Positions 1-42,993 of a stretch of DNA of 64,000 nucleotides are shown piece by piece (position 1 is the first letter of the stretch; each line of letters begins with the position of its first letter). The stretch covers positions 128,001 to 192,000 of the forward strand of contig CAWJTV010000013.1 in assembly GCA_963845755.1 (NCBI GenBank), in the 5' to 3' direction. Both the position numbers and the translations under genes were made by a program. Below the pieces are notes generated by a model. That model did not search any database, was not told the origin of the DNA, and saw only the letters and a program-made list of their open reading frames with translations. The DNA comes from an uncultured Planctomycetota bacterium (lineage in GTDB: Bacteria > Planctomycetota > Planctomycetia > Isosphaerales > Isosphaeraceae).

Positions 1-267
1 AGTATCGCCTGCTCGGTCTCGCCGCTAAAGCCTTCGAAATGGTTGCACTGTGCTAGCCCGTCGGCAATTCGCTCGATGGTTGCCGTCTGCCTTGGTTCCG
101 TCCCGTTTTCCGAGTTTGCTTAATGTTTCCTGAAACTTTCCTTTACCTCGCCGCCAACCGAAGCTGAACATATAAAACACGGCCGGCAGAACGGCAGACA
201 GATCGAAATCTTGTACTGTGATCGGCAGGGCCTTTTCATAGTTCCCTGACCAGATCTCGCGGGTCAT
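1..267 (-). CDS. 5' part of a hypothetical protein coupled to the NERD-kinase-ATPase gene (Mad7/DndG-like position); runs off the window edge
   Basis: The ATG at 267 overlaps the upstream TGA (ATGA at 267-264); a GTG at 291 is an alternative start. Reads MTREIWSGNYEKALPITVQDFDLSAVLPAVFYMF, then after an indel near 90-100 continues QTATIERIADGLAQCNHFEGFSGETEQAIL to position 1. Confidence 0.6.
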
Positions 268-3200
268 ACCACGCCCAAGCACCTCGTCCACGATGCGCGG
301 GCCGTTGTGGCAATCTTTCCCGGGCTCACGCCCCGCCTCCTGGTGCGACTACACTCAGGTTTATTCGCTGATCTCATTCGCGGTTTGCTCCAAATTGTGG
401 AGACCTTGAAGATCTTCTCTTCCTGCATCGGATTCAAGGCCAACAGTTCACTCTCATCCTCGCGGACCAAGCGTTGGATAAAGATAGAGAGATTGGCGAA
501 CGTATCGTCGGTCGAGACGTCGCCCAACTGGTATCCGTCGCTCAACTCCAGAAGCAGATGAAAGACTGCCCGCTTCAAGCCCCGAGCGCTCTTCACGGCC
601 GTCGCGATAGCGATAGATCAGGAACGCTTGCCGGTGCAGGCGCTCCATGCCCTCCGCTTCCGGCGGAAGATCTGCCTCAAGTCGAAACGAGGTGACCGGC
701 TTCTCTACCCAAAAGTCCGTTTCTGTTGGCGTTCGAGGCGTGATGGCCAGAGGGATTACGTTGGGCCTGTCGAGCGCCTGGGGTGGCAGATCTTCAAGTC
801 GCGAAATGCCACGACACAGACGCTCGCAGAGGCTCACCAGCTTCTGTGGGTCCTTGACAATCGGGAGATCTCGGAAAAGACGCAGGTGCCGCCCGCGTGC
901 CAGATCGAGGGCCTCGGGCTTGCCCGCGAACTCGTCATCGAGCGCCGGGCTTGCCCGCGATCTCCTCTATGTGTTCCTGCGTCCATTCGAAGAATGCCCG
1001 GCGCCGGGCTGATTCCAATTTGAGTCGGTCGTAATGAAGCGCCGTCCTGTCGCTGTCCGGGGAGGGTTTGCTAAGCAGGTGCCGATCGATCTGGGGATGA
1101 GCCTCGAGAGTGGGGTCGAAGCGGACCAGTTCTCGTAATACTTCGCCTTGTCGGCTAGGCGAATCGGCGGAGAAGGCACGGTCCCAGTATGGTGGAACTT
1201 CAGATCCGGCGTGGTAATCCTCGCAGAAGTGGACGCCGAAGAGAATATAGACCAGGGCTGCGCGTAACTCGCGGACAGTGATGTGCGTTTCCCCGCGAAG
1301 GTGGACGGCTTGCAGCGCCGCGAACAGCCGTTGGCGGGCGCGGTCGCGAATGTCCTTGTTCGCTGACCCAGGAAGACCCTCCGGACCGAAGATTCGGTTC
1401 GCACGGAAGACTTCACAGCGATCCTTTGCCGAACAGGATCGGCAAGGTGCCCATGTCGCAGACGCTCGTTCCCCACCATACAAGGAGTCCATCAGGGGCT
1501 CGAAAAAGCTGGTCTCGATTCGGCTCCCGTCAGGTGTGATGCCCCCGACGAGGGACCTTTGATTGAGGCTCACGAATCGGATGTAGGAGTCCTGCGTGGC
1601 AACTTCTCGTCGGAGTAGGTCGTACAGTTCTCCCGTGAGCGCCGTTTCATTGCCACCTTCGCGTGATTCCACACCCTCGATCCACTCGAGCAAACGCCCA
1701 TCGTTAATCGCGAGGAGATGCACAATGTCATCGGTGGGCGGTCCATGCTGGAATGGTGCCAGAAACTCGTCGAGGAGGTTGTCGGCAGAGCGTCCCTGCA
1801 CGCTCCATGCCGCCGATCCGTCCAGATTCATGCGAACAACCAAACCGTCACGCATTCGAGATTGCAGGATGTGCTCGGACGAGGAGTGCTTCCGAACTCC
1901 GAGTCGCGTAGCGAGATGCTGAAGTAGAGCAGTCTTGCCGTCGCCAGCATTGCCACATAAGATCACGAGGCGGACTCGTCGCTCAAATACATCATGATAT
2001 AAGGATTCTTCGAGCCTTGTTTCAACGTAGGTCTGAGAGGCGAAACCCGTGTCGAGCCCCCGCGTCTCACGATTTCCCCACCGCGATCCCGGATAGGACT
2101 GCAACAGTGAACTCAGCCACTCGATTCGTTCCTGGTGCAGTTCCACTCCGGCGCGTTCTTCTTGAGCCCGTTCGGAAGCGCCCGGGAACTACCTTGGCGG
2201 TCCTTCCTTTTGTAGCCGTAGTCGGGTCCGCTTTCGGCTCGGGCGCCTCGAGGACCGCCAGGGCCGCACGAGCTGAGGCAAACCGCTGTCCCGGGTCGGG
2301 ATGGGTTGCCTTGTCGAGGAAATCAGCCAGCGCGAGGCTTTCCGAGCGTTCAATTCCATCCCAGTTCAACCCCCGCTCTTTAGCTTGAGTGCCGGCGAAC
2401 TGGAAAGGTTCCCTCCCGAAGACCACGTGAAAGAAGCTGGACGCCAAAGCGTAGATGTCGTCTGACGGCGAGGTCGCTCGCTGCTCCTGATAAGAGGGTG
2501 AACAATACAAAACGGTGCCGGGCGAAGCAACGGTTTCGCCAATCTTGCCGACGAAATCGTAGTCTGTCAGGACGAGATCGCTTCCGGAAACGATCATGTT
2601 TCGAGGGCTGATGTCGCCGTGAATCAAGCGGTTGCGATGGAGCACATCGAGCGCCCGACACAAAGGCGCGCAGCCACCGCAAGGCCAAGGCTTCACTGGA
2701 CGTCTCTTGCTGCTCTTCTGCCAAAAGTGGGAAGACGCCGGTGAACTCGCCAAGCGGCGTGCCTTCAACCCAGGTCATCAGCGCGACGAATTGGTTCTCC
2801 CGCGGTTCGCCCGCCACCTCAAGGATGGCGGAGAGGCCCGAATGACGGCCGAGGTACGATTGCGCCAGTCTATAGGCCTTCAGGACTCGCTCGCCGGTTT
2901 CCACACTATGCCCAACTTTGGCCACGTAAGTCCCGAGATCCTCTTTCGTTCAACCGGTCGATCTCCACCACCTTGAAGGCCGTCCCCATACCTCCGGATC
3001 CGAGACGTGCAACAATTCGATAATCGCGGTCGTGGAAGCGTACTACCTGCTCTTCCGTCCAGAAGCGGGCCGGAGGGGTTGCCGGCGGCGGTAGTGATTC
3101 GCCCAGCAGTTCGGAGGCCGACGCGTTCAGGGCTTCCAGCGTACAACGCTGCGCCGGGCTCTTCCGCCATGCCTTTCGCGAACACCTCCACGGCCTGCCG

Positions 3201-4410
3201 GCTAGTCTCATCGTCCCGTCCCTGGAACAGTGGTGTCAGACAAGCGCAAAGCGAATATACATCCGAGCGAAAGTCCGCAACGCTCAGGCCGAGCGCTCGA
3301 ACCTCTGGAGAAGCCGTGGCATCCCATTCGCGGGACGGCGTTCCGCTGGATGCCACGGTGATGTCGGAGGGGATCTTGGTGCGATCAAAGCCTGTGAGGA
3401 TCGGCGAATTATCGTATTTCACCAGGATCGTTCTGGGCGTGAGGTTCCGGTGAACCATGGCCTCACCGGCCGCCCCCGCCTTGTGCAACTCGGCCAGCGC
3501 GCGAACGGCCGCCTTGTGCAAAGGTCAACCGCCTAGTCGCGTCCCATGTAGGGTCGGTCGCTCGCTCCTCGATGCTTGGTGCGGCGGGGTTGACCACCGT
3601 GAAGAAGAACATCTCACCCGCATACCCAGGCACTTCCTGATAGGAATCCAGAATTCGAGGAGCCCATTCGCACAGTTGTAACCGATGGAGCGCTTCGAAC
3701 TCGCGTTTGGCCTTGGCCTCGGCATTCTTCTCGTCGTTTGCAGATAGGTCATAGAGATGTAAGATGACCCGATCTTGGCGTGCGGGGTGGCACCCTTTGT
3801 AGACACGATGAAAACGTTCCTCCTTCGACGTTTGGAGCTCCAGGTTAACATAACCGGCGAGCCGGCGCAACGAGCCATCCATAGCGACGGCGATCTTTGG
3901 CTCCAAGGCGTGCCCCAACCTCGCAACTTGTTGAGGCGACAGTGCTCGTCCGGAGTCGACGCCGATGGCGCCTTTCCAATCATTCAGTGTATGGAACCGG
4001 ACCCCTCGTACCTCCTTGTTGGCGAGCCGCTTGACTTTGCTCGGCTCTTGAGTCAGCAGGATAGCGCCAGCCACATGAGGAAGGTTCGGAGCAATCTTGC
4101 GGAGCGTTGTCCCGATCTTGCGAGCCTTGTTCGTAACTCGTTCCGCCTCCTGCTCCACCAGATCTCGATGCTGGTCCACCCATGAAGGACTCCAATGTTT
4201 AACCTCGACGACTCGAACGCCGGGCGAGCCGATCACGACAATGTCGATCTCGTCCGACTGCAACTGATTGGTAATCGAGAAGGCGAGGTTCGTTAGTAGG
4301 ACCCATGGGTCGTCTCCCGCTGCGGTTTGGAGGCGGCTTTTCAATTGCTCGACGGCTTTGCGCTCGCTTTCGTTCACCGCGGGGCCGCAGGGGAAGACGG
4401 TCACTTTCAT
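264..4410 (-). CDS. Multidomain NERD nuclease - pseudokinase - Ser/Thr kinase - P-loop ATPase (MADS Mad6-like / PglW-related defence kinase), about 1380 aa, split by several indels
   Basis: Stitched from ORFs 3463-4410, 2880-3521, 2906-3211, 2380-2925, 2067-2768, 935-2146, 454-837 and 264-596. NERD motif EIDIVVIG..VVEVKHW; kinase-like 1 HRNLTPRTIL..TGFD; kinase 2 LGSGGMG..VAK..HGDISPRN..TDYD; Walker A CGNAGDGKT; LLAINDGRL; CxxC-x4-C (CRSCSAKDRC). Confidence 0.8.
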
Positions 4411-4499
4411 CTTCTTACCTCCGTTTCCTGCATCCGAAACCTCAGCGGATCGGGGTGAGTGGGAGACCTATGGCGCAGGCCGCCACGCCGACCGTCGCA

Positions 4500-4770
4500 G
4501 ACTGCAAGGTGGTCCAGTCAGGTGATGGCCATATGCATTGGATCGGGTGTCATCTCGCTTTTGGTCCGAGGGGCGGGCGGAAGCGCGGGCGTTTCCTCTC
4601 GTCGGCAATGCGGTGGCCTGTCGGATACGAGTCGAGGTAGTTCTCCAGCGCGTGATGCGCGGGCATTTCATGTTTCTTGCTGCTTCTCTCACGAAGCCGC
4701 GTCCAGACAATTTTCCTTGAGCGTAATCTTCTTCGTTCGCCATTGCAACCATGGCGTCAGGGTAGATAGA
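4500..4770 (-). pseudogene. Fragment of a tyrosine recombinase/integrase
   Basis: Across frames it reads AMVAM.NEEDYAQGK..WTRLRERSSKKHEMPAHHALENYLDSY..IADERKRPRFR, resembling the 'VEDYYxxGKRWWVRLHEKGGKxHEMPAHH' segment of XerD-like integrases. Truncated, with stops. Confidence 0.65.
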
Positions 4771-5120
4771 AATAATTGGTCGTTGCGGTGATGATTGCCG
4801 CGCTCGTCGGGGATCAGGTAGACGCTGGAAATCAAGCTGCTTCGGTCCGACGACACAGACGAATGCTCGAACTCTTCCGGACTGGTACCGGTATCGACTC
4901 TGGAGGCGTCTTCGGGCCGCAAGGAGACACCCGGGCGTCGGGCGGCGATCCCGTCGAGATCCCCGTGCGACGGTTGCGGGACGCAACGAGGATGCGACCC
5001 CGGCCGGTGTTGAAGTGCGACCACGCGTTCATCCAGGCGCCCGGCCGAGCACTCGGGTGGGGGAATCGGCCTACGCCACCCCAGCCGCCCGCGGTAGAAT
5101 GCCGCCGGGAGGTGACCGTG

Positions 5121-5534
5121 ATGCAGACCATAACTCTGTCCGCCCAGGCCGTGGCCGTGCTCCGGTTCGAGATCCGGGGGTGGAAGGCGAAGGCCCCGGC
5201 CGGCCGGCTGTCCGCCTACCGCGAGCTGGCCGCGGCCGGGGTCATGGAAACGGTGCCGGGCTCGGAGGGGGAGTACCGCTTCACCCGGGAGGGACGGGAG
5301 CATGGCGGGGCCATCCTCGAGCGGGAGGCGGAGCGGATCGAGCGGGAGCGGTACGAGCCGCCCGATGCCAGTCGTCTGTCGCATGTGGCCAGGGAACTAT
5401 GGCGGCGTGCCAATCATCGCGGGCTTGCAGAAGAGGTCGCGGAGGCGCCGGAACGGATTGTGCATGCCGGGACGATTCCACGTTTCGCGACAGATGGCAA
5501 GCCGCCCACCGGGGGACAAGGTGAATTCGCGTGA
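5121..5534 (+). CDS. Hypothetical protein (3' end possibly degenerate)
   Basis: GGAGG RBS before ATG 5121 and a TAGAAT -10-like box at 5095-5100; MQTITLSAQAVAVLRFEIRGWKAK... with coding-like codon usage. Confidence 0.5.
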   Translation: MQTITLSAQAVAVLRFEIRGWKAKAPAGRLSAYRELAAAGVMETVPGSEGEYRFTREGREHGGAILEREAERIERERYEPPDASRLSHVARELWRRANHRGLAEEVAEAPERIVHAGTIPRFATDGKPPTGGQGEFA

Positions 5535-5736
5535 TGCCTTGACGACCGCTTCCCGCGCCGCGCCATTCCTCGCTTCGCCTCCCCCTGCCCGTGTTGGTGC
5601 GGGCATGGTGCCCAGATCCCGGAAGGGGCCCGGAAAGGGGACGGAACGAATCTTGGACCCCGAAGGCGACGGGGCCCGGGACTATCCGCCGAGATCACGG
5701 TTTGTGGATGACCCGTTCGTGACCGCGGGTCTCTTA

Positions 5737-6644
5737 GAGTGCTCGGAAAAAATGAGTTCACTGGCCCAGGAGCCTCAAACAGATCAAGGAACATGCTAAC
5801 TTGAGGAACGCGTCTTGAATCTCGGTGAGCCGATCCAAACGGCGGCGCAGCCGGCCGAAGGAGTGCAGCCACGCGATGGTCCGCTCTACGTACCAGCGGG
5901 ACTTGCCCAAACCGCTGCCGTGCTCCGTATTGCGGGCCGCCAGCACCGGCGTGGTCCCCCGGCCGCGCAAACCCTGCCGCACCGGTTCCGAGTCGTAGCC
6001 CCGATCCCCCTGCAAGCGGTCGGGCTTCTGCCGCTTCGGCCCCGGCTTGCCGCCCACCGGCGGCATGTCGTCGAGCGTCGTGAAGACCTGGGTGATCTCG
6101 GGGACGTTGGCGGCGGTCACCGTCGCCGCCAGCGGCACGCCTTGGGCGTCGGTCATCACGTGGTGCTTGCTGCCGGATTTGCTCCGGTCCGTCGGATTCG
6201 GGCCGGTATCCTCGCCCCCTTCCGGGGCCTTGGCGAAGGAGGCGTCGATCAGCGCCCGCTCCCAGTCGATCGCGTCAGCGCCGTTGAGCTCGGCCAGCAA
6301 GACGGCGTGCAACTGGCGCCAGACACGGCCTGCTGCCACGCCTGCAGGTAGGACCGGCAGGTCTTGCCGCAGCCGCAGCCGAGGTCGGCGGGCAAGTCGT
6401 CCCAGGCGATGCCGGTCTTGAGCACGAACAAGATGCCGGTGAGGATCTTGCGGTAGTCCAGGGGTTTGCGTCCCGGGAAGCGGAAGCGGCGCGGAGGCGG
6501 GGGTGGCAGCAAGGGCTCCAGGCGCTTCCACAGCGCATCGGAGACAAGGGGTTTCATGGTGGTCCTCCTTCGGTTCGGGAGATCACTCTCCGAAGGACTC
6601 AAGAGCAGACAGCGTGCCAGTGGATTCATTTTTTCCGAGCGCTC
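5737..6644 (-). mobile_element. IS5-family insertion sequence (908 bp)
   Basis: 29-bp terminal inverted repeats, 26/29 identical: GAGTGCTCGGAAAAAATGAGTTCACTGGC (5737-5765) and the reverse complement of 6616-6644. TTA target duplication at 5734-5736 and 6645-6647. Confidence 0.93.
5758..6557 (-). CDS. IS5-family DDE transposase (one indel near 6326)
   Basis: N-terminal MKPLVSDALWKRLEPLLP..ILFVLKTGIAWDDLP (DUF4096-like); C-terminal IDAS..GPNPTDRSKSGSKHHVMTD..GDRGYDS..RWYVERTIAWL. Confidence 0.9.
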
Positions 6645-6688
6645 TTAGGAAGTCCGTAGGGTTTCCAGTGTTCGGAGCGCGCAGTACT

Positions 6689-6925
6689 CTGTCTACCGTC
6701 ACATTCGAGGAAGCCAAGGCTTATCGGGATGAGTTGATCACAGGTCTCTGGCCGGGCGAGGAGCTGATCATCACGCGCGGCGAGCGGCTGGTCGGGACGC
6801 CCACCGAGGTGCCCCGCCCGCTGCCGGGACGCGGTCAAGGTATGCTGACGATCGTCTTGGAAGACGACAACCATCTCAAGGATTTCGCCGAGTCCATGCC
6901 GTGATGCGCTGCTCGATACGCATCG
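6689..6925 (+). pseudogene. Decayed Phd-like antitoxin plus the first codons of a PIN/VapC toxin
   Basis: The start has mutated to CTG: (M)STVTFEEAKAY..PGEELIITRG..GRGQGMLTIVLEDDNHLKDFAESMP*. An overlapping atg cgc tg ctc gat acg cat follows, an MRLLLDTH-like remnant. Confidence 0.6.
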
Positions 6926-7249
6926 TCGAGATCATGCGCGAGATCCAGGATCTGCTGGCGAGGAGGTCATGAGCCGAACCCGCAGGATTCCATCACCGAC
7001 TCCGGTTGACCTCAAGATTCCCGGGTATGACGTAGAGAGGCCGTGCTCAGACCAGAGGTCGTGCTCAGACCAGGTTTCTAGTTTCTTGGCCGCCGCTTCC
7101 TCTCCGAATCCACACCGGCCTTCCGACTCGACTACCGCCAGGAATACGGCCGCCTCACCCTCTCCGTCATCACCGTCATGGGGATGGTCAAGGGCCTGGA
7201 GAAGGTCCAGGTGACGCTCCCACTCGACATGCCGCTGGCAGGAGATTAC

Positions 7250-7309
7250 GTAGGTCAGGCTTCCCAGCCTGACAGAGCCAGACTGTCAGGCTGGGAAGCC
7301 TGACCCTAC
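7250..7309. repeat. GTAG-type REP-like palindrome
   Basis: Perfect 23-bp arms GGTCAGGCTTCCCAGCCTGACAG (7253-7275) and CTGTCAGGCTGGGAAGCCTGACC (7283-7305), bounded by GTAG...CTAC. Confidence 0.8.
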
Positions 7310-7530
7310 CGAAGACGATACAACCGAACCGGATAAAAGCTCTTCGGCGAGGAATGAAACAACTCGCGATCCTGAGTCAGGCCCAGGCTGGCGCGGAGCC
7401 CCTCCAGGTAAGGTCCCCACGTCTCGGGTCGATGTCCGGCGGCGGTTCGAACTGAGTCCCAGAGGAAGTGGGTGACGCGATACTGGGCGATCACCTCCTG
7501 GATCCGCCGGAACTCGTTTTTCTGGAAAGA
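7306..7530 (-). pseudogene. C-terminal fragment of an unidentified gene
   Basis: ..NEFRRIQEVIAQYRVTHFLWDS..YPVRLYRLR* has coding-like codon usage but no plausible N-terminus. Confidence 0.3.
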
Positions 7531-7587
7531 TCTTGCTCAGGGCCGCATTCTATGGTACCCTTAAACGTACCTTTGGAGGTACTGATC

Positions 7588-7863
7588 ATGGCTAGAGTCC
7601 CCGCCATCGTTCCGGTATCCGATCTCAGACAGGACGCGGCGGCCGTCCTGAAGAAGGCACGCGATTCGGATGAACCGATCTTCATTACACAGCGGGGGCG
7701 GGCGACGGCTGTCCTTCTGAGCATCGACGCCTTCGAGCGATCGGAGAACCAGCGAGAGCTCCTCCAACTCCTGGCTCGGGGCGAACAGGAGATTGCTAGC
7801 GGCATCGGCCACAGCCTTGACAGCGTGCTGACCGAAGCCGACACGCTCCTGTCGGAAGGCTGA
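7588..7863 (+). CDS. Type II antitoxin, Phd/YefM family
   Basis: GGAGG RBS; MARVPAIVPVSDLRQDAAAVLKKARDSDEPIFITQRGRATAVLLS. Three GTAC palindromes upstream (7555-7583) may be operators. Confidence 0.9.
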   Translation: MARVPAIVPVSDLRQDAAAVLKKARDSDEPIFITQRGRATAVLLSIDAFERSENQRELLQLLARGEQEIASGIGHSLDSVLTEADTLLSEG

Positions 7864-7865
7864 TC

Positions 7866-8162
7866 ATGGACGTTCGATTCACGGCCACGGGTCGGGCGCA
7901 GTTCCTCGGTGCGATCGATTCGATTCGTCGAAAGAGCCCCCAGGCCGCCCGGCAGTTTCGCCAGCGATCTGAGAAGTCGCTCAAGCGACTGGCGAAGTTC
8001 CCCAACTCCGGCGCGCTCGTTACCGAGTTCCGCCATCTGCCCTATCGCGAGGTGTATGTCCAGCCCTACCGGTTTTTCTACCGCGTTCGGGAAAAAACCG
8101 TATGGGTCGTTGCGGTCTGGCATGGTGCCCAGATCCCGGAGGAACCGGAGGCGCGGAGCTGA
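7866..8162 (+). CDS. Type II toxin, RelE/ParE family
   Basis: 98 aa, 2 bp after the antitoxin; LAKFPNSG..YREVYVQPYRFFYRV..VWVVAVWHG. Confidence 0.9.
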   Translation: MDVRFTATGRAQFLGAIDSIRRKSPQAARQFRQRSEKSLKRLAKFPNSGALVTEFRHLPYREVYVQPYRFFYRVREKTVWVVAVWHGAQIPEEPEARS

Positions 8163-8221
8163 TCGCGCGGCCGTGTGTCGAACTTGGAGCATCGCATCAG
8201 CTCTCGGGTGGCTCGTCATCG

Positions 8222-20215: not shown

Positions 20216-23200
20216 ATGCTCAATCTCTCCTCTCCTACATCCCACGACCTGGAAGTCACGGCTGAGCGACGTCGCCTTCGCCTTCGCAGCCACCGCCGTC
20301 GCTCCGGCCGCGATCGATCCCGGGGCCGGGGCCACCAGCCCAGCTTGGAGTTCCTGGAGTCCGGATCACGCCCTCGACCGAGATCTGGCTGGGTGCCGAC
20401 GGCAACAACTGGGATGACGCGGCAAACTGGGTGGATGGCATCGCTCCCGTCGCGAATGACGATCTGGTCTTCCCCGCCACCGCGGACAACGATGTCTCGA
20501 CGAACAATTTCGCGGCCGGAACGACCTTCGACTCGATCTCGGTCGAGGGATCGGGCTACTCGCTCAGCGGCAACCCGGTGGATTTGACCAAAGGGATCAC
20601 CACCAGCTATTCGTCGGGCAAGACGACCGACGCCATCGACACGGTCTTGCTCAACGGCAGCGTCTCCATCGGATCCGGCGGCACGTTCGACCTGAACGGC
20701 GCGGTTTCGGGCACGGCCGGGATCACCAAGACGGGCCCAGGGCAGATGGAACTTGCCGGCAACAACTCCTACACCGGCGCCACCACGATCGGCGCAGGGG
20801 ATCGTGTCGCTCGACGATAGCAATGCGCTCGGCGATACCAGCGGCGTCGCCATCGCCGACGGCGCGGAGCTCGATATCAGCGGTGGGCTCACGGTCGGCG
20901 CGCCGATCACATCGGTCGAGGGCGCGGGTACCACCGGCGTCGGCGCCATCGTGAACCTCGGGGGAACGAACAGTTTGACCGGCGACATCACGCTCGCCGG
21001 TGAGACCACGATCGGCGTGAAAGCCGGCCAGCTCACGCTCTCCGGCGTCGTCGATGACGGCGGCAACACCTATGGCGTGACCCTCGCTGGCGGCGGAACG
21101 CTCACCTACACCAATGCGAACACTTATTCTGGAATGACCGACGTGACCGCCGGCACGCTCGAGCTGGATAGCACCTTCGGCGCCGCGCTGTCCGGGCCGT
21201 TGACGGTCAACGCCATCACCAGCGGCGACGCCACAGTTCAGGATGAAGCGGCGAGCCAGCTCACGGCCATCAACGCGAACGTCACGCTGATCGGCGGCGG
21301 GGCCACATTCGACCTCAACGGCTACAACGGGATCGTCAACTCGCTGACGTTCACCGGTGGGACGATCACGACCGGCGCCGGCACACTGCTTGTGGGCATC
21401 GGCGGCGTGACGACCAACGCCGCCTCGAGCACCGCCACGATCGCCGGCAACCTCGACCTCGCCAGCGGGACGCGGACCTTCACCGTCGCCCAGGGCAATG
21501 TTCCCGATGGCGGCGCCGACCTCGAGATCTCGGCGATGGTCATCGACGGCGGGCTGACCAAGGCGGGGGCGGGCGCGCAGAGCTCAGCGGAGCCAACACC
21601 TTCGACAAAGGCGTCACGGTCTCGACCGGCCTCGTCCTCGCCACCAACGACGCCGCGCTGGGGACGGGCGCCGCCACGGTGGACAGCGGCGCCGAGCTGG
21701 ACCTCTCCGGCGGGGTCGCCATCGCCAACGCGCTGGACATCGCCGGCACGGGCGTATCGGGCGGCGCGCTGGTCAACACCGGAGGAACCAACACCCTCAG
21801 CGGCGCGATCACCCTGGCCGTTAACACCACGATCGGTGTCGAGGCGGGCCAGCTCACGCTCTCGGGCGCCATCAGCGGCTCCGCCAACCTGACCAAGGCG
21901 GGCAACGGCACACTCGTCCTGGGCGGCGGCGCCCCCAACGATTACACCGGCACCACCACCGTCATCGCGGGCACGTTGCAGCTCTCCGACACTGGCGGGG
22001 CAGCGATGGACGGCCCGCTCGTCATCGGCGACGGGACCGATACAGCCCTTGTCCAGGAGACGGCCTCCTACCAGATCGGAAGTGGATCGACGTCGATCCG
22101 CGTCAACCCTTCGGGCTCCTTCGGCCTCGATGGTCATAACGACGTCATCGGCTCGTTGACGCTGGACGCAGGCACCGTGTTGACCGGGACCGGCACCTTG
22201 ACGCTGGACGGCGGCGTCACCACCATCGCCGCGACAAGCACGGCAACCATTAGCGGCCAGATAGCCCTGGGAAACGATCTGACCTTCCTGGTCGTCGTCA
22301 ACACCGTTCAGAATGGGCCCGACCTCGACGTCCCGGCGATCATCTCCGGGGGCCATGCGATCATCAAGGCCGGGGCGGGCACACTTGAGCTCGACGGCAG
22401 CAACACTTACAGCGGCAATACGACGATCGACGCGGGCATCCTGGAGACGACGAACTCATGGGGTCTCGGCGGAGGCGGTGGGGCCAACATCACGGTCGCG
22501 GGAGGCGCCGAGCTGCTCGCCACGGGCGCGATCAACATCACGGCCACCACGCTGACGATCAACGGCACCGGCGTCGACAACGCCGGGACACTGGTACTCG
22601 ACAACAATGCCGGCGTCCGGGCCGCGAGCTTCATCCTCGGCTCGAATGCGACGATCGGCGTGACCCACGGCAATTCATCGATCCAGGTCCCTATCGGCGA
22701 TGGCGGAAACTATTACGGTGTGACCCTCGTCGGCGGCGGTACGCTCACTTTCACCGCGACGAACACCTATACCGGCACCACGATCATCGACCGTGGCAAC
22801 CTCCTGATCGACGGGAACAGCTCCTCCAGCAGCGTCTTCACGGTCGATAGCGGCGGAAGCCTCATCGGCGATGTCTCGGGTGGAAGCACGGCCGTCTCCG
22901 GCATGACGGTCAACAGCGGCGCCACGGTCGCGCCGGGCTTCGGCGACAGTATGGCCGAGCTCGCGTGTTTGGGCGATGTCCGCTTCGCCAGCGGCTCGAC
23001 CTACAGCGTCGTGCTCGGCGGCGCAACCGTCGGCACGCAGTACGACCAACTCAACGTCACCGGCACTGTGGACCTCAACTTCGACTCGGGCACGGGCGCC
23101 ACGCTCGCGCTCTCGCTCGCCGACGGTTATATCCCCAGGCCGGGCACGACCTACACGATCATCGCCTCCACCGGAACGCTTTCCCATACGTTTGACGGCT

Positions 23201-26200
23201 ACGGCGACGGTACGACCATCATGGCCGGGAACTACCCGTTCCGGATCACCTACCAGGCCAACGCGGTGGTGTTGACGGCCCTGCTGCGCATCGACACCTG
23301 GACCGGCGCGGGGACCGACGACAACTGGTCCACGGTCGGAAACTGGCAAGACAACGTCGCCCCCAATCTCTACGACACCCTGGTCTTCCCCGCCAGCCCG
23401 ACCGAGTCGTCATCGAACAACAACTTGGCCGCCAGCACCGAATTCACCTCGATCAGCATCGACGACAGCAGCTACGCGTTCACCGGCAATGCGATTTTGC
23501 TGGATGAGGGGCTCACAGCGAATAATGCATCGGGCACGGCGGCGTTCTCCATGAACATCGCGCTCAACGCCGATCAGACGTTCACAGTCGCCAGCGGTGG
23601 GATGCTGGACATCTCCGGCGTCATCTCCGGCGCGTACGCACTGACCAAGGCCGGCGCGGGGACGCTTGAGCTCGATGGCACCAACACCGACTCCGGGAAT
23701 ACGACAATCAGCGATGGCGAGATCGCGATCACCAACCCCGCGGCCCTCGGTAGCGGGCAGGTGAGTATCGAGAATAGCAGCCTGATCGTTCTCAACCTCG
23801 GCGGCAGCAACACGATTCCCAATGGCCTGGTCCTCGACTCGACCAATAGCCCGTCGATGGAGAACCTGGGCGGCAACAATACGTTCAACGGCCCGATCAC
23901 CGTCGGCGCCAGCACCGACGATGGGAACCTCTTGGTCGCCGACATCGACACTGCCAGCAGCACCACGCTGACCTTCGCGAGCGGCATCACCGAGTATTCC
24001 TCGGGTTATGGTCTCGTCAAGAGTGGGGCGGGGACCCTGATCCTGGGCAACAGCAATAGCTACAATGGGGGCACAACAGTCACTGCCGGCACACTCGAGC
24101 TGGACAATCCTGATCTCCCATCGGCGCCCACGATCTCCGGACCACTGATGATCGACGCCGGCACCAGCGGCAGCGCCACGGTTCAGGATGAAGCGAGCGA
24201 TCAGCTCCTGGGCGGCGGCGTGGATATCACGCTGATCGGTCCGGGAGCCACGTTCGACCTCAACGGCTTCAGTGATACAATCAACTCGCTGATCCTCACC
24301 GGCGGTTCGGTGACGACCGGGGCCGGCGTGCTCGTCCTTGGCGGCGACGTGACGACCAATGCCGCGGCGACCACAGCGGCAATCAGCGGCAACCTGGATC
24401 TCGGCAGCGGCACGCGGACCTTCACCGTCGCGCAGGGCATCGACCCCAGCGGGATCGACCTGTCGATCTCGGCAGTGATCATCGACGGCGGGCTCACCAA
24501 GGCCGGCGCAGGGGACGATGGGCCTCTCGGCCGCCAACGCCTACGCCGGTGGGACGACGATCAACGCCGGCACGCTCGGCGTCGAGAACAACGGCGGTGC
24601 CCTGGGCACCGGCCCTGTCAGCATCAACAATTCCGCCGAGATGATGGTGTTCGTCGGGCCCGATTTCTCGAGCGCGAGCCTCACCAACGAGATCACCTTC
24701 AATACGACCAACCCGACCGCGATGAAGATCATCGGCGGGTCCGTCTCGATCAGCGGGGCGCTCATGCTCACGAGGTCCGCGACCTTCGACGTGAAAGCTG
24801 GCTCCGAGGCGAATGTCACCGGTGCAATTGGCGACGGCAGCCCGAGCCAAGGCGTTGGGCTTACGAAGAGAGATTCGGGCACGCTCGACCTCTCCGGCAC
24901 CAGCACTTACACCGGGGCGACCGTCGTGTCGGGCGGTACCCTCGAGGTCAACGGCAGTATCAGCGGCAGTGCAGTCAACGTCGATGCCGGCGCGATCCTC
25001 GGCGGCTATGGCACGGTCGGCGACGTAGTCTCGACCGGCGGCACCGTCGCGCCGGCCGACGCCCCGAATGTTCTCGACACGGGCTCGTTCTCGCTCGACG
25101 ACACTTCCACGTTCGCGGTCCAGCTCGACGGCACCACACCGGGCGGCGCCGGCGGCTACGACCAGGTCGTCGCCGTCGGCGCGGTCAGCCTGGACGGCGC
25201 CACGCTCGACGCGGTGATTGGCGGTTCCTATACGCCGGCGCCCGGCGATCAGCTCACGATCATCAAGATGGATAGCGACTCGGCCGTCGTCGGCACATTC
25301 AAAGGACCGCCCGAGGACGACCTCTTCACCATCGACGGTTACCTCTTCGAGATCACGTACCTGGGCGGGCTGAGCGGCCACGATGTCGTCCTGACCGCCC
25401 TGGAGGCGACGACGACCCAGGTTTCGACGTCGCCCCAGCCCTCGACCTACGGCCAGGCAGTCACCTTCACGGCATCGGTCTCGGCCGCATCCGGCACCCC
25501 GTCGGGCTCGGTCAACTTCTACGATGGCGATCCATCCGGCGGCGGCACCTTGCTCGGCACCGGTCCGGTAGACCTCAAGGGCCACGCGACGTTCTCGACC
25601 TCGGCCCTTCACGTCAGCGGCTCGCCGCACCAGATCTACGCCAAATATGATCCCTCGGCGTCGTCCGGATTCCTGGCCAGCACGTCAACCGCCTTCGGCC
25701 AGACGGTCGATCCCGCGGCGGTGACGGTCACTGCAAACAATGTGAACAAGGCCTACGGCGATCCGCTGCCGAGCTTCACGTTACGCTACACCGGGCTTCA
25801 GAATGGGGATTCGGCCGCCGATTTCGCCACGCAACCCACGGCCGTCACGACTGCTACCGCGGCCAGTCACGTCAATCTCGACGGCTACGCCATCACTCCC
25901 TCAGGTGCCGTCGACCCCGACTACCGCTTCAGTTATCTCAGCGGCACGCTCACCGTCACCCCCGTCAGCCTGACCGTCACCGCCGACAATGTGAGCAAGG
26001 AGTACGGTGCGCCGATCCCCACCCTGACGGCCAGCTTCAGCGGGTTCGTCAACGGCGACTCGGCCGCCAGCCTCACCGCGCAACCGGTCCTCAGCACGAC
26101 GGCCACCCAGTCCAGCCCGATCATCGCGGGGGGCTACCTCATCATCCCCTCCGGCGCCATCGACCCCGACTACAGCTTCCGATACACGAGCGGCACGCTG

Positions 26201-27913
26201 ACGATCACCCAGGCGCCTCTGACCGTGACTGCCAACGACCTGTCGATGACCTATGGTTCGACAGTCCCGGAGTTGACCGATCGGATCACCGGGTTCGTCA
26301 ACGGCGATACGGCGAGCGTCGTCTCGGGGACGCCCTCGCTTGAGACGACGGCCACCCAGTCCAGCTCGGTGGGAGCGTACGCCATCACGGTGGATGTCTC
26401 GAGCCTCTCGGCCACCAACTACACCTTCAGCGGTCAATCTGGCAGTTTGGCGATCGACCCGGCCGCGCTCGACGTGACGGCGAATGATCAATCGATGACC
26501 TACGGCGGGACCGTGCCGTCCTTGACCTTCGTTATCAGCGGACTGGTCAACGGCGATACACAGAGCTCGGTCCTCTCCGGCGGTTTGACGACAACGGGCA
26601 CATCGAGTTCCGACATCGGTGGCTACGCCATCACCCAGCGAAACCTGGCCTCCAACAGCAACTACGCCCTGACGTTCACGCCCGGAACCTTCACCATCAA
26701 CCCCGCCGAACTCGACGTGGCGGCCAATAACCGATCGATGACCTACGGGGGGACCATGCCGGCTTTGACCTTCGGCGTCAGCGGGCTGGTCAACGGCGAC
26801 ACCCAGGGCTCAGTCCTCTCCGGCGCCCTGACGACCACCGCCTCAACGACCTCCAACGCCGGCAAGTACGGCATCGCCCAGGGATCGCTGGCCGCCGACG
26901 CAAATTACACGGTCAGCTTCACACCAGGCACGCTCACGATCACCCCGGCACCGCTGAGGATCACTGCGAACAATGCGAGCACGGTCTTCGGCGCACCCCT
27001 GCCGGCCTTGACGGCCGGTTTCAGCGGATTCGTCAACGGCGACACGGCCGTCAAACTGACGACCCAGCCAACCTCGAGCACCTCGGCAACATCGACTAGC
27101 CCGGTGGGCTCCTATCCCATTCAAGTCTCGGGGGCCACCTCGGCCAACTACACGATCACGTTCCAGCCCGGCACGCTGACGGTCGCTCGGGCGAGCACGT
27201 CATCCACCTTGCTCACATCGAGCGGCTCGACGGTCTTCGGCCAGATGGTGTCCTTCACCGTTCATGTCGGGTCGATCAGTCCCAGCACGGCCGTGCCCTC
27301 GGGGAGCGTGACCTTCTTTGTCGATGGAGCCGCGATCGGTTCGGCCATCGACTCCGACGGCCAGGCGACATTCAGCACCGCCTCGCTGGGTGTGGGCGCG
27401 CACGCCGTCACGGCGGCTTACTCGGGCAGCAGCAGCTTTGTGTCCAGCGGATCCGGCGCGGTCCCGCAGGTGATAGTCCAGGCCGGCACGCAGTCGGTCC
27501 TGACGGCGACGGCCGTCCGGAACCGCCACGGCCAGATCATCGATGTGAACTTGACCTCGCAAGTCCTCATGATGTCGGCGGGCGGTGGAACGCCCACGGG
27601 CACGGTCACCGATTTCGTCGGCAGACGGCAGTTGGCGACCGGGTCTCTCAGTAACGGGATCGCCGTCCTGACGCTCAAGCCGAAACAGGCATTGAGCAAG
27701 ACGTTCTTCGTCGCATACAGTGGCGACGCGGACTTCCTCTCGAGCACCTCGCCCAAGCTGGTCGTCAACAACCGGGCCTTCAGGGCATCGGCCCGGCCGT
27801 TTACCGCCTTCTCCAAGCAAGGCCACGGACGGGCCCACGCGACGATGCCATCGCGGAACGTGCAGTCAGGGATCGCCGTGTTCAAGGCTCCGAATCACAA
27901 GCACGGCCGTTGA
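20216..27913 (+). CDS. Giant secreted adhesin-like protein: autotransporter-associated beta-strand repeats, Ig-like (Big_3) and MBG domains (several indels)
   Basis: Arg-rich leader with PSLEFLES (LEPR-xLL-like); many LTKxGxGTLxLxxxNxYxGxTxVxxGTL repeats; about 5 MBG units (LTVTAxxxSxxYG..GxVNGD); Ig units TYGQAVTFTA and VFGQMVSFTV. No beta-barrel is visible. Confidence 0.85.
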
Positions 27914-28052
27914 AGGCTCGAATCGTGTTCAGTCGCCAGTAAGAGACGCGCAGGGCGCGAGGCTCCCAACCCTGCCCAGCCCCCGGTACGACGGACTCCA
28001 GATTCGTCACACTACATGCTCGCCCGATTATCGGCGATTCGGGGATCGCCTC

Positions 28053-28952
28053 TCAGTCCCCCCGCTTGCCTTTTCGCGGCGCGAGCGCCCGGTGGAAGAC
28101 GTCGAGATCCGGGCAGTTGCTGGCGAGCTCGAGGAGATCCTTGAACCGGTCGTCGCGCAGTCTCTTCAATTCGGCCTGCACGCCCGCGGCCTTGACCCCG
28201 AACCGAGCCACAAGGACGGCCAGAAGTGCCGCCTCAGTTGCCTCCCGCTTGCCTTCGCGCTTGCCCTTCTGAATCGCCTCGTCGATCACTTCCCGAAGCA
28301 ACGGCGATTTCACCTTGATCATGGCTTTGGTCCCTCCCAGCAACTGGAACACGCTCGGGTCATTATACCTCAGTCCGGCGAGGAAGTGAGTGGCCACCCG
28401 CAAGCTCTCGCGTTCCTCCTCGGGTGCGTCCCGCTCGATTCGTTCACGGCATTCTCGGAAAATGGGCTCGGCGGGACCTTCGAACTGGGCCAGCGGTATC
28501 CAGGGGATCAACCCGATGTCCCCGGTCGCCAGCAGGTCCGCGGCCGGGACCTTCCACAACTCGACCACCTTCCAGTAGACGTGGATGCTCGAGAAGCCCT
28601 CCTCGCTGGAGATGATCAGCTTCCGAGGAGTCGGCCGCTTGCCTCGGGGATGAAGGACCAGTGCCACGACCTCGGGCACCACGCGGCGTTCGAGATAGAC
28701 CAGGAGGGCATCATCACCGGCCTGCTTGGCCAGCCGCTGGTAGGGATAGCTGGAGACCTCCAGCACGAAGTGAACAAGCCGGGACCGGCCGGGGCGCTGG
28801 ACCTCGATCAGGCCGTCGGGGAGGCGCCGAGGATGCACCGGCTCGGCCTGGAGCGGCTTCCAGGATTCGATGTTGTGGAAGCCGGCGAGGCGGAGGATCG
28901 CGTCGGCGTGGTGCTGGATCATCCACTTGCAACTGGTGTCATAATCGAGCAT
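28053..28952 (-). CDS. Rpn/YhgA-like PD-(D/E)xK nuclease (putative transposase family)
   Basis: MLDYDTSCKWMIQ..RLPDGLIEV..FVLEVSSYP..VVELWKVPAADLLA..GLIPWIPL..EGKREA..LVARFG; the C-terminal helical domain is typical of the family. Confidence 0.7.
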   Translation of the reverse strand: MLDYDTSCKWMIQHHADAILRLAGFHNIESWKPLQAEPVHPRRLPDGLIEVQRPGRSRLVHFVLEVSSYPYQRLAKQAGDDALLVYLERRVVPEVVALVLHPRGKRPTPRKLIISSEEGFSSIHVYWKVVELWKVPAADLLATGDIGLIPWIPLAQFEGPAEPIFRECRERIERDAPEEERESLRVATHFLAGLRYNDPSVFQLLGGTKAMIKVKSPLLREVIDEAIQKGKREGKREATEAALLAVLVARFGVKAAGVQAELKRLRDDRFKDLLELASNCPDLDVFHRALAPRKGKRGD

Positions 28953-29216
28953 CTCGGGCCCCTCGGCGACGATGAGCCTCTCCCGGCCTCCACAGTCGGC
29001 CAGAGTCATCCGAACTCTTATCGGCGACACGGACGACCCGTCCGCAAGGAGAACCCCCTCGACCGACGAGAGATCACGATCCTCGTTCGCGATCGACAAA
29101 TGTTAAGGATAGATCGAGGGAATGACGTCCGGGAGGTTCCACGACGGGATGGCCGGGTCATGCCGTCAGTGCCGGCGCGGCACTCCGTTCCGGTCACATC
29201 GCATTGCGGCAAAGGT

Positions 29217-29993
29217 TCAGGAGATGGGGTTGGCCGCGGGCGAATCCAGGCTCGGGTTCAGGCGCGGCGGCTCCGGCATCACAGCGGGCCGATGACGGAG
29301 GATCTCCCCCTGCTCGAGGTAGATGACCGACTCGGCGATCTTGGCGGCGTGGTCGGCGATCCGCTCGAGGTTCCGCGCGGTGTTCACCAGCCGCAGCAGG
29401 GTGTTGATCCGCTCGGGGTTGCCGGCGAGCTGCTGCTTGAGCTGCTTCTGGATGGCCCGGTAGTCGCGATCGATCCGCTGATCGGCGGCGATGACGGCCT
29501 GGGCCAGGGAGACATCGGCCTGGGTGAGCGCGTCGAGGCTGTTGCGGACCTGGCCCAGGGCCTCGATCCCGAGGTTCTCCAGCGGCTGGGGGATGGGCAC
29601 CGCCTGGGGATCTCCGGACAGCTTCTTGACCCGCTTGGCGATATGCCGGGCCAGGCCGCAGAGTCGATGCAGTTCGCCGTTGATCTTGAGCACGACGGCG
29701 ACCCGCCGCAGGTCGGAGGCCACCGGCTGATGCAGCGCCAGCACCCGGACGCACTCCCGCTCGATCTCGACCTCCCAGCGGTCGACCACACGCTTCTGAC
29801 GCTTCACCGCGCCGGCCAGCTCGACCCGGACGTCGCACAAGGCATGGATACTCTGGCTCAGCGCGTCCTCGACGACCGCCGCCAGCTTCAAGATCTCGGC
29901 CCAGAGGCCCTCCATGTCTCGAAGAAAACCGCGGCCCACCGTGACCCGACCATGGTCGCCATCCGGATCGGACGGCTGCGGTTCTTGCAGCAT
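29217..29993 (-). CDS. phoU: Phosphate signalling complex protein PhoU
   Basis: EIERECVRVLALHQPVASDLR..ADQRID..ARNLERIADHAAKIAESVIY. Confidence 0.92.
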   Translation of the reverse strand: MLQEPQPSDPDGDHGRVTVGRGFLRDMEGLWAEILKLAAVVEDALSQSIHALCDVRVELAGAVKRQKRVVDRWEVEIERECVRVLALHQPVASDLRRVAVVLKINGELHRLCGLARHIAKRVKKLSGDPQAVPIPQPLENLGIEALGQVRNSLDALTQADVSLAQAVIAADQRIDRDYRAIQKQLKQQLAGNPERINTLLRLVNTARNLERIADHAAKIAESVIYLEQGEILRHRPAVMPEPPRLNPSLDSPAANPIS

Positions 29994-30463
29994 CAGGTGA
30001 TTCCCCGTCCCGTTGTCTGAACTGGCTTGACCCCACCTCGTTCGATCGCGGACCTCCGGATTCCTCGTCGCTCAACAAGACCTCGGCGGTCCGGCTCATC
30101 GCGCCGCCGATCGTCGTCTTGCCGAAACCGGCCCGGTCAGAGCCTTGCCCGACCGGGAGGAATCGATCGATTCCCGCACCGAATGCCCCTCTATCCTTCA
30201 GCTTAGGAGATCGAGCCTCTCGGAACAACGTCAAAACCGGCAAATACACGAGAAATTCACAGTGGCATGATCGATGAGGGCGAAAACATCCGCTATTCTG
30301 TCGGCAAGACAGTCGGTCACGCGTTCCCGCCCCATGGGGTCTTTCTCCGGGTCGAACCTCGAACGAATGCCCATCGAACGGCCATGATCCGCTGGAGCAA
30401 TTCGGGGGCGTGTTGGATAATACGGCTCCATGGCAACCCGAACCCCAACCGCGAGGCCGCAAC

Positions 30464-38813: not shown

Positions 38814-39527
38814 TCATGAGGGCGGCTCGACCCCCATCGCCCGCAACTGGGCCGCCATCTGCTCGGCACGTTGACGCTCGGCGTCGCGCTCGCGAGCCAC
38901 CTGGTCGCGCTCCTGGGCCACCTGGTCGCGCTCCTGGACCAACCGGTCGCGCTCGTCGGCGATTTCCTGATAGGTCAAGAACCGCTGGTCATCGGGACCA
39001 AGGATCGTGAGCTCGCTCCCCGAGAGGTCGAATCGGATGCCCAGGCGGGGGCTGGTCCAGCGGTCGATCTGGGGGATTTGAACGAGAACGCCTTGGCTGC
39101 GCTGCCACCCCTCCAGCACGATGTCATCGGGGTCGTAAAGATAGTACTCCTCCACGCCGTATTTCTCGTAAAAAACCAGCTTCTTCTGCATCTCGCGATA
39201 GCTGTTGTTGGGCGAGAGGACTTCGAAGACGACCTGGGGTGCGATCCCGCCTTCCTCCCACTGTTTGTACGACCCGCGGTAGCCCTTGGGACGCCCGATG
39301 GCGACCAGCGCGTCCGGGGCCAGGCAAATCTCGGGGTGCCCGACCACCGGGTACCAGAGCAGGTCTCCGGCGACGAACACGTCGGGACGGTTGCGATAGA
39401 CCCGATCCAGCCCCTCCTTGATCGTCACGATCCAACCGAACTGGAGCGTGTTATCCGCCATGGGCTGTCCATCACTGTCGGGGTAGATGATCTGCGGCCG
39501 CGCAGGACGGGGAGTCAAGATACTCAT
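38814..39527 (-). CDS. Uma2 (DUF820) family PD-(D/E)xK endonuclease with a heptad-repeat tail
   Basis: YPDSDGQPMADNT..APDALV..PQVVFEVLSP..YEKYGVEEYYLYDP; 21-bp repeats encode ERDQVAQERDQVARERD. Confidence 0.92.
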   Translation of the reverse strand: MSILTPRPARPQIIYPDSDGQPMADNTLQFGWIVTIKEGLDRVYRNRPDVFVAGDLLWYPVVGHPEICLAPDALVAIGRPKGYRGSYKQWEEGGIAPQVVFEVLSPNNSYREMQKKLVFYEKYGVEEYYLYDPDDIVLEGWQRSQGVLVQIPQIDRWTSPRLGIRFDLSGSELTILGPDDQRFLTYQEIADERDRLVQERDQVAQERDQVARERDAERQRAEQMAAQLRAMGVEPPS

Positions 39528-39595
39528 GAAACGAGTCCTCGGATGGGCCATCCGGGTCATTAAGAGCGCCTATGGCTAGCGTGGGATAGGGCCCA

Positions 39596-39682
39596 GGAAA
39601 AAGGGGACTGGCTCCCGGCCTCGAGGGGTTCCGTCGATTTCGGGCTCAGCGCCCGTGGGCCGGGTGCCTGTCCCCTTTTTCC
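39596..39682. repeat. Planctomycete-type inverted repeat (AAAGGGGACxGGC)
   Basis: 25-bp arms with 2 mismatches: GGAAAAAGGGGACTGGCTCCCGGCC / GGCCGGGTGCCTGTCCCCTTTTTCC. Confidence 0.7.
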
Positions 39683-39911
39683 GCGCACTCAACCCAAGCG
39701 TGAAGTGCTCCAGGCTTTTTATCCGATTCTACCCGCGCGATCGTCGGATACCAACGTGAAAGGCATCGTCCGAGTCGTTCTTGCGATAAGAACGGCTCTG
39801 ACCGGATCGTTCGAGCTCCCTGCGTCCTTGGAGTCGCCCGAACATCGCGATACATTTGATGAAACCAACGGGGGTTCTCGGGCCGGGTCCTGTCCCGAAA
39901 TCGGTGAAACG

Positions 39912-42900: not shown

Positions 42901-42993
42901 GCCCTGGCGCCGGCCGATGCGGCCGGCATGTTGACTCCCATCTACCCGGCCGCTGAGTGGCGCGAGGACTCAGCGGGATCGGCCTCGTCATAG
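39912..42993 (+). CDS. TIR - coiled coil - STAND (NB-ARC-like) NTPase - TPR protein (indels near 41255 and 41510)
   Basis: TIR FISYS..WLDKKDI..IDEAIRDC..VCKREW; Walker A GRAGIGKT; Walker B VVLLDNFE; ILTTR; GFPWALE after frame correction; 40-aa TPRs LGLCYxxLGQxxRAxxxxEQALAIAREVG. Confidence 0.88.

Follow-up and report, generated by a model that had tools for sequence, protein, structure and literature searches.

The stretch of DNA analyzed here, called the window throughout, comprises 64,000 nucleotides from an uncultured Planctomycetota bacterium of the family Isosphaeraceae (assembly GCA_963845755.1, genome G000) and corresponds to positions 128001-192000 of contig CAWJTV010000013.1 (C13); negative window positions lie beyond position 1 on the same contig. 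A minus-strand gene at the start of the window, gene A, is followed beyond position 1 by genes B and C. Gene A is very probably a kinase-fused DndF, the first subunit of a stand-alone trio of the DndFGH/MADS Mad6-8 class, and the copy in this genome is most likely non-functional. The features of the cassette are as follows.

326..4410, minus strand: gene A, probable kinase-fused DndF, about 1359 codons with 7 well-supported frame shifts; the frameshift-aware alignment and the tblastn pieces agree
4408..4425, minus strand: start of gene A, ATG at 4410-4408 with the Shine-Dalgarno sequence GGAGG about 7 nt upstream; direct sequence reading
4126..4374, minus strand: NERD (PD-(D/E)xK-type) nuclease domain; Pfam PF08378, E=3.4e-9, residues 13-95, with the D..EVK motif at 4192-4254
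3090..3810 (approximate limits), minus strand: first kinase fold, degenerate; PADLOC MkoA, PD-T4-6, and mad6 kinase profiles
2250..3025 (approximate limits), minus strand: second kinase domain with intact-looking motifs; Pfam Pkinase, E=1.2e-12
326..2140, minus strand: DndF/SspF-like core including the C-terminal α+β part; PADLOC SspF, E=4.9e-15, and DndF, E=4.5e-5
329..-1509, minus strand: gene B, MAD7/SspG-like, about 610 residues, its 5′ end occupying 1..329 of the window; tblastn and frameshift-aware alignment, 7 frame breaks
-1496..-7177, minus strand: gene C, DndH/MAD8-like with a HerA/FtsK ATPase, about 1680 residues; tblastn, at least 12 frame breaks

Gene A translated in table 11 falls into several separate open frames. 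Frameshift-aware alignment to three full-length homologues (P0002, P0004, and P0022) was used to place the breaks, and reading through them gives a product of about 1359 residues, with 73-76% identity to the three references. The breaks lie near 3510, 3152, 2950, 2661, ~2200, ~937, and 567, and each of the seven fits one extra base in the assembly. Two further breaks near 397 and 372 fall in the poorly conserved tail and are seen with two of the three references. The first-pass annotation, made from the letters of the window, had reconstructed one polypeptide of about 1380 residues; the single long product is borne out once the seven breaks are read through, and its length is corrected to about 1359 codons. 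The TGA stop of gene A at 328-326 overlaps the GTG start of gene B at 329-327 (GTGA), and gene B has a Shine-Dalgarno sequence of its own (GGAGG at 340-336), which makes the previously proposed coupled partner a real gene. An ATGA at 377-374 lies 48 nt upstream of this GTG in the frame of gene B. The stop at 937-935 was considered as the junction between gene A and its partner and rejected, being a frame break inside gene A; the true junction is 329-326. The earlier placement of the kinase gene at the head of its cluster holds, as gene A is the first gene of a three-gene operon.

All of the motifs that the first-pass annotation had listed for the protein are present on the minus strand. The NERD domain carries DEIDIVV (4234-4254) and EVKHW (4192-4206). 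In the first kinase fold VILH (3748-3768), HRN (3441-3452), and TGF (3384-3395) replace VAIK, HRD, and DFG, and the second kinase has GSGGMG (2984-3001), the lysine of YVAKV (near 2908-2922), HGDISPRN (2598-2621), and TDYD (2556-2567). The DndF-like core contains the Walker A sequence GNAGDGKT (1931-1954), AINDGR (1694-1711), and the cysteine cluster PCRSCSAKDRC (PCxxCx5C; 1415-1447), and these three elements are invariant columns in the family alignment. The NERD motifs, the degenerate and intact kinase motifs, Walker A, and the cysteine cluster are at least 90% conserved across 60 full-length homologues. A winged helix-turn-helix (wHTH) ahead of the NERD domain did not turn up, in analyses that included no search aimed at this fold, and the genome holds no paralogue of gene A.

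Profile searches place gene A between several known families. Its window pieces match PADLOC PglW (E=6.6e-11, on the NERD piece), and the intact orthologues that were profiled, those of loci L016 and L017, match MkoA, mad6 (E=1e-31), PD-T4-6, the N terminus of PglW, and SspF (E=3e-15). The best NCBIfam match is MAD6 (E=8e-56), at 190 bits versus a cut-off of 460. NCBIfam PglW (NF033442) is matched at the N terminus only, with 43 bits versus a cut-off of 990, and DptF (TIGR03238) is matched by the L017 orthologue only, with 21 bits versus a cut-off of 50 (E=1e-4). A PDB sequence search with gene A returned ordinary kinases only.

Gene B is 62-66% identical to its L016 and L017 orthologues and matches the whole NCBIfam MAD7 model (E=2e-48) with 166 bits versus a cut-off of 410; PADLOC mad7 is matched by the L016 orthologue with E=9e-15. 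A search against PDB sequences gave no match for gene B, and its AlphaFold2 (AF2) model, built on a 9-row alignment, has a predicted local distance difference test (pLDDT) score of 45, too low to use. Gene C is the HerA/FtsK-like DndH/Mad8-like ATPase that had been anticipated beyond position 1. The intact orthologue matches PADLOC DndH (E=2.4e-22) over residues 1311-1673 against profile positions 1285-1666 of 1678, so that the match is co-linear and lies at the C terminus. PADLOC mad8 is matched over the last 340 residues only (E=3.9e-18), HerA profiles match as well, and the best solved structure is the DptH ATPase domain 7ES4 (E=9.7e-9).

The cassette is heavily broken. Gene A contains 7 frame breaks, gene B 7, and gene C at least 12, which amounts to at least 26 in 10.3 kb. 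The background in the same genome is 5 breaks in ~12.9 kb of rpoB, rpoC, and dndBCDE, and the cassette exceeds this rate about 6.5 times (binomial p=7e-6). The adjacent genes of an IS5-family element and of a Phd/ParE pair have no unexpected break. Across the cassette the breaks divide into 16 insertions and 10 deletions, with all 7 in gene A being insertions, and this distribution gives no clear verdict.

The most severe lesion is in gene C. Residues ~1165-1402 of the DndH-like protein, about 238 codons, are replaced by a 1.28-kb repeat at window -6243..-4968 (C13:121757-123032), and the missing stretch is absent from the whole assembly. It holds the Walker A sequence GLPGMGKT, which is invariant in 15 of 15 intact homologues. 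The repeat is presumed to be an insertion sequence because it has multiple copies in the genome: five sister copies on contigs C16 (two), C24, C26, and C40 are near-identical to one another, and distant copies have 72-78% identity. The copy inside the DndH-like gene is ~4% diverged, with 42 private substitutions and 13 private indel columns compared to 0-4 and 1-3, respectively, in the five sisters. The 42 private substitutions indicate an old insertion, barring an origin from a diverged source. A 366-residue plus-strand frame inside the gap has no Pfam match; it may have an IS66-like zinc-finger look. A repeat of ~105 nt adjoins the insertion sequence (window about -6350..-6243), recurs at ~15 other places in the genome with 79-88% identity, and resembles a miniature repeat element.

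Our conclusion is that, in its assembled form, the cassette cannot function. The copy is likely dead because the DndH-like gene has lost its Walker A region to an old insertion and all three genes are riddled with breaks. Some of the one-base breaks may be assembly noise and the rest real decay. The dead locus that the first-pass annotation had allowed for is largely what was found, through the insertion that removes the DndH Walker A.

The architecture of gene A has close counterparts in the literature. The DndF core is described in the available text of PMC10853773 (Rakesh, Aravind and Krishnan, NAR 2024) as a derived P-loop kinase whose Walker A is canonical, with a large helical lid that may bear a Zn-chelating insert and with an α+β domain that evolves fast. 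N-terminal fusions to this core include wHTH, NERD, and 'tandem inactive and active' serine/threonine/tyrosine kinases, and the same text argues that DndFGH often occurs apart from DndABCDE, as a stand-alone counter-invader system. A NAR 2026 paper on BREX (PMC12839542) restates the kinase-fused DndF, as far as its available text goes, and gives PglW the same layout of NERD, inactive kinase, and active kinase. Gene A shares with the kinase-fused DndF of PMC10853773 the NERD domain, the inactive and active kinases, and probably the DndF-type core with its Walker A, cysteine (Zn-type) insert, and α+β end. It is followed, as there, by a gene that may be DndG-like and a ~1700-residue DndH-like HerA/FtsK gene and is unlinked to dndABCDE. 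No architectural difference from the available description emerges; the copy here differs in being frame-broken and in having its DndH-like partner interrupted by an insertion sequence. Both the architecture and the stand-alone DndFGH context are thus already known from the available portions of PMC10853773 and PMC12839542, and the earlier proposal of an undescribed variant system falls, given that the NERD-inactive kinase-active kinase-DndF fusion is in both papers. Literature searches turned up no bench work on this trio with its fused kinases; the supplements of the cited papers may list the family.

Sequence matches relate the trio to DndFGH/SspFGH as well as to the MADS Mad6-8 arm. The resemblance to Mad6-Mad7, to the DndF/G arm, and to PglW that the first-pass annotation had pointed out is upheld by matches to the MAD6, MAD7, SspF, and PglW profiles, with all curated scores below cut-off. 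MADS of Pseudomonas aeruginosa SMC4386 provides the best curated matches of genes A and B (MAD6 and MAD7) and the PADLOC mad8 match of gene C, and its NERD and double-kinase head is common to gene A. The trio here differs from MADS in being without mad1-5 (helix-turn-helix regulator, N6-methylase, Mad3/Mad4 ATPase-nuclease module, and Mad5), in having ~600 additional SspF/DndF-matching residues in gene A beyond the 612-position MAD6 model, and in the size of gene C, ~1680 residues versus a 314-position mad8 model. DndFGH/DptFGH and SspFGH share with it the three-gene order, the SspF/DndF P-loop matches, the DndH match, and the DptH structure 7ES4. Unlike gene A, the classical DndF/SspF profiles, with ~525-600 positions, have no room for a nuclease-kinase head. 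To our knowledge, classical DndF proteins lack such a head. Classical DndFGH and SspFGH adjoin dndBCDE or sspABCD, whereas dndBCDE is on another contig here. PglW of BREX type 2 has the NERD, pseudokinase, and kinase head of gene A; its C-terminal half has triple-wHTH and inactive STAND domains, according to the available text of PMC12839542, and is unlike that of gene A. The BREX type 2 partners PglX and PglZ were not found beside the trio among the scanned neighbors described below. The Mad6-8 arm is the nearest bench-tested relative of the trio, and mad6, mad7, and mad8 are each required for phage resistance in the available text of the MADS reports (bioRxiv 10.1101/2023.03.30.534895; PMC13662399).

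The distribution of the family was determined by a search with the 403-residue P-loop piece of gene A (E≤0.001, 8000 candidates scored). The search gave 1215 longer homologues, and the best 120 of the 1215 share 69-80% identity with the piece. These 120 proteins have 720-1367 residues, and most have 1300-1370 with NERD and Pkinase domains. The source names among the homologues include Planctomycetota, Pyrinomonadaceae, Bryobacteraceae, Anaerolineae, Kallotenue, and Tectimicrobiota, which span several phyla. A survey of 29 loci, with one genome per species, open reading frame calling, and clustering, has the gene A family in 29 of 29 loci, followed by a ~610-residue family in 23 and a ~1670-residue family in 22; several of the loci are cut by contig ends. 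The co-oriented order A, B, C holds in this genome too. An intact cultured example is found on plasmid pRphaR630c of Rhizobium phaseoli R630 (NZ_CP013540.1, 21,217-31,933), beside SIR2 and FRG genes and without a methylase, where the three genes are annotated 'NERD domain-containing protein kinase family protein', 'hypothetical protein', and 'ATP-binding protein'. The G+C content at third codon positions (GC3) of the cassette frames is 0.60-0.71, whereas most long host genes of the window (8225-64000) have 0.75-0.90. A DNA search of 40 related genomes gave only two chance-level matches of 38-44 bases (E ~5e-4), and the same-genus genome gave none. The lower GC3 together with the absence of the locus from the same-genus genome fits horizontal acquisition.

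Modification genes were sought on both sides of the cassette. The region upstream (window 4411-8200) contains no DNA methylase, in agreement with the first-pass annotation. The modification module that the annotation had expected beyond position 1 did not materialize, since no DNA methylase or phosphorothioation gene was found among 53 frames scanned in the 20 kb on that side. This region contains genes B and C, a PIN gene, an HxlR regulator, an SDR, an M28 peptidase, a glycosyltransferase, SUI1, and a small-molecule-type S-adenosylmethionine-dependent methyltransferase. The PIN-domain gene (window -8192..-7734; L002:11808-12266, plus strand) lies immediately past the DndH-like gene and is encoded on the other strand. 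The integrase relic proposed upstream of gene A is not supported either, as seven frames over 4459-5872 have no Pfam match at E≤0.01; this stretch is unique in the genome and unannotated.

The neighborhoods of the 29 loci were scanned with PADLOC on 142 of the 144 neighboring frames of at least 140 residues. Dnd/Ssp modification proteins had no match among the 142 frames, and the full canonical mad1-5 block, whose presence beside homologues would have made this a truncated MADS in the first-pass annotation, stands in none of the 29 loci. A Type I restriction-modification (R-M) set of methylase, specificity, and restriction genes lies directly upstream in four (L017, L019, L028, and L030), and the other 25 are without an adjacent methylase. 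Frequent neighbors are Dsr2, AbiE, Menshen, and PDC candidates. The genome does contain a dndB-dndC-dndD-dndE cluster with host-like GC3 on contig C15, at ~211,000-216,900 (L045:8040-13900, minus strand). The dndB, dndC, and dndE genes are unbroken, dndD is in three pieces separated by two frame breaks, and the cluster is unlinked to dndFGH. A second DndB-like gene is located at L045:18586-19737. Among 10 other trio-bearing genomes, dndC scores over the cut-off in two, unlinked to the trio in both, and the other eight have no dndC over the cut-off.

A mechanism can be proposed for the intact relatives, following the available text of PMC10853773. The DndF-type P-loop core and the variable C-terminal domain would sense a nucleotide or an invader molecule. 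The MAD7/DndG-like protein would bind DNA, and the ~1680-residue DndH-like protein, with its restriction-nuclease and HerA/FtsK ATPase domains, would cut and translocate the invader DNA. The NERD nuclease and the pseudokinase-kinase pair would act as regulators or back-up effectors.

Several observations weigh against the reading of the cassette as a dead copy of a stand-alone DndFGH/MADS Mad6-8-class trio, and they concern both the class and the loss of function. The scores of genes A and B fall below all curated cut-offs, so neither qualifies for a named equivalog family. The SspG match on which the DndG link of gene B rests is a weak one at the C terminus (E=1.3e-5), and the N-terminal 1300 residues of gene C have no DndH profile match. 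The AF2 model of the DndF core, from a 13-row alignment, has a P-loop core, a long helical region, and an α+β end, a predicted topology that fits DndF with the modest confidence of a mean pLDDT of 64. Foldseek comparison of this model to the PDB gave no hit at E≤0.001, with generic P-loop proteins at TM<0.2. The proposed mechanism draws on the domain content and on papers whose own work is computational. With respect to class, the cassette could also be MADS in truncated or variant form, a Mad6-8 arm with methylase and specificity genes located elsewhere or of another type. This would account for MAD6 and MAD7 as the best NCBIfam matches and for the PADLOC mad8 match of gene C; in the available text of bioRxiv 10.1101/2023.03.30.534895, MAD6-8 are the only components that the detection model for MADS requires, and the Type I sets upstream in four loci point the same way. 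It is nevertheless very improbable, given MAD6 and MAD7 scores far under their cut-offs, the extra SspF/DndF-matching residues of gene A, a gene C that dwarfs the mad8 model, the loci without a mad1-5 block or adjacent methylase, and the absence of a DNA methylase from the 20 kb beyond position 1 and the ~4 kb upstream. Practically no credence attaches to gene A as a BREX type 2 PglW gene or fragment: the NERD-piece match and the shared NERD-inactive-active kinase layout (in the available text of PMC12839542) speak for it, but the NCBIfam score is a small part of the cut-off and confined to the N terminus, the C-terminal half matches SspF/DndF and not PglW, and the scanned neighbors contain no PglX, PglZ, or BrxD match.

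The objections to loss of function come from the assembly and from the residues that survive. In this genome rpoB is split into two frames and rpoC has two breaks, and an aminotransferase gene and a peptidase M1 gene of the window are also split. The breaks in the essential rpoB and rpoC mean that the assembly itself makes indel errors. Separately, several same-family genomes with 1-30 contigs have a marker completeness of only 58-74%, the pattern expected of frame-breaking long-read assemblies. The cassette contains no unambiguous nonsense codon, when ~3 would be expected under decay (P of none = 0.04), a figure calculated at the indel-to-substitution ratio of the repeat copy if the excess indels are real decay; the single stop seen consistently, at -4693, has the appearance of a short double frame shift. 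After frame correction gene A retains 93.8% of the 675 conserved columns, within the 88.6-97.8% of 33 held-out intact homologues. The broken rpoB, rpoC, and dndD, the lack of a clear nonsense codon, and the retained residues would suit a cassette that is alive, in which the breaks are long-read errors, the insertion reflects strain variation or a mis-join, and the trio restricts DNA, perhaps by reading phosphorothioate marks made by a dndBCDE cluster that has dndB, dndC, and dndE unbroken and dndD recognizable on C15. We consider this unlikely. The break density is ~6.5 times background with no excess in the genes immediately upstream, the repeat copy carries 42 substitutions where consensus noise gives no such divergence in the sisters, and the 238 missing codons are nowhere in the assembly; coupling to dnd is further opposed by the eight of 10 other trio genomes without dndC over the cut-off. 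That the cassette is active in the living population in trans with the C15 dndBCDE genes, as a split phosphorothioate R-M system with a kinase-gated restriction arm, is distinctly unlikely. More broadly, the kinase-fused trio might be a restriction machine that needs no modification and is switched on by phosphorylation. A decayed copy of the kinase-fused DndFGH/MADS Mad6-8-class trio thus remains the preferred reading. Its plausible end state is a genome with largely unbroken phosphorothioate modification genes and an unlinked DndFGH-type cassette that is decaying after an insertion-sequence strike.

As a discovery the locus matters little: both its architecture and its stand-alone setting are on record, and public annotation already calls the family 'NERD domain-containing protein kinase family protein'. 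Conservation of the family across several phyla is high (69-80% identity in the 403-residue core piece), and its intact cultured copies are reasonable targets for study.

The remaining features upstream of gene A and elsewhere in the window stand apart from the trio.

5727..6652, minus strand: IS5-family insertion sequence, not part of the system; Pfam DDE_Tnp_1 and DUF4096 in two frames, transposase at 5761-6629

The IS5-family element has at least seven other copies in the genome with 98.7-99.8% identity (blastn) and, judged from this similarity, was apparently active recently. An intact Phd/YefM antitoxin and ParE toxin pair (window 7456-8159, plus strand) separates this element from the host genes. 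Several overlapping frames over 20266-30274 (plus strand) encode a very large surface protein with PATR, MBG_2, and Big_3_5 repeats and are probably one gene broken by frame shifts. A Uma2-family endonuclease gene (38817-39569, minus strand) lies just upstream of a TIR domain with an AAA_22 NTPase, followed by TPR repeats in an overlapping frame (39564-42990, plus strand); these frames are probably one frame-broken TIR-NTPase-TPR defense-type gene.

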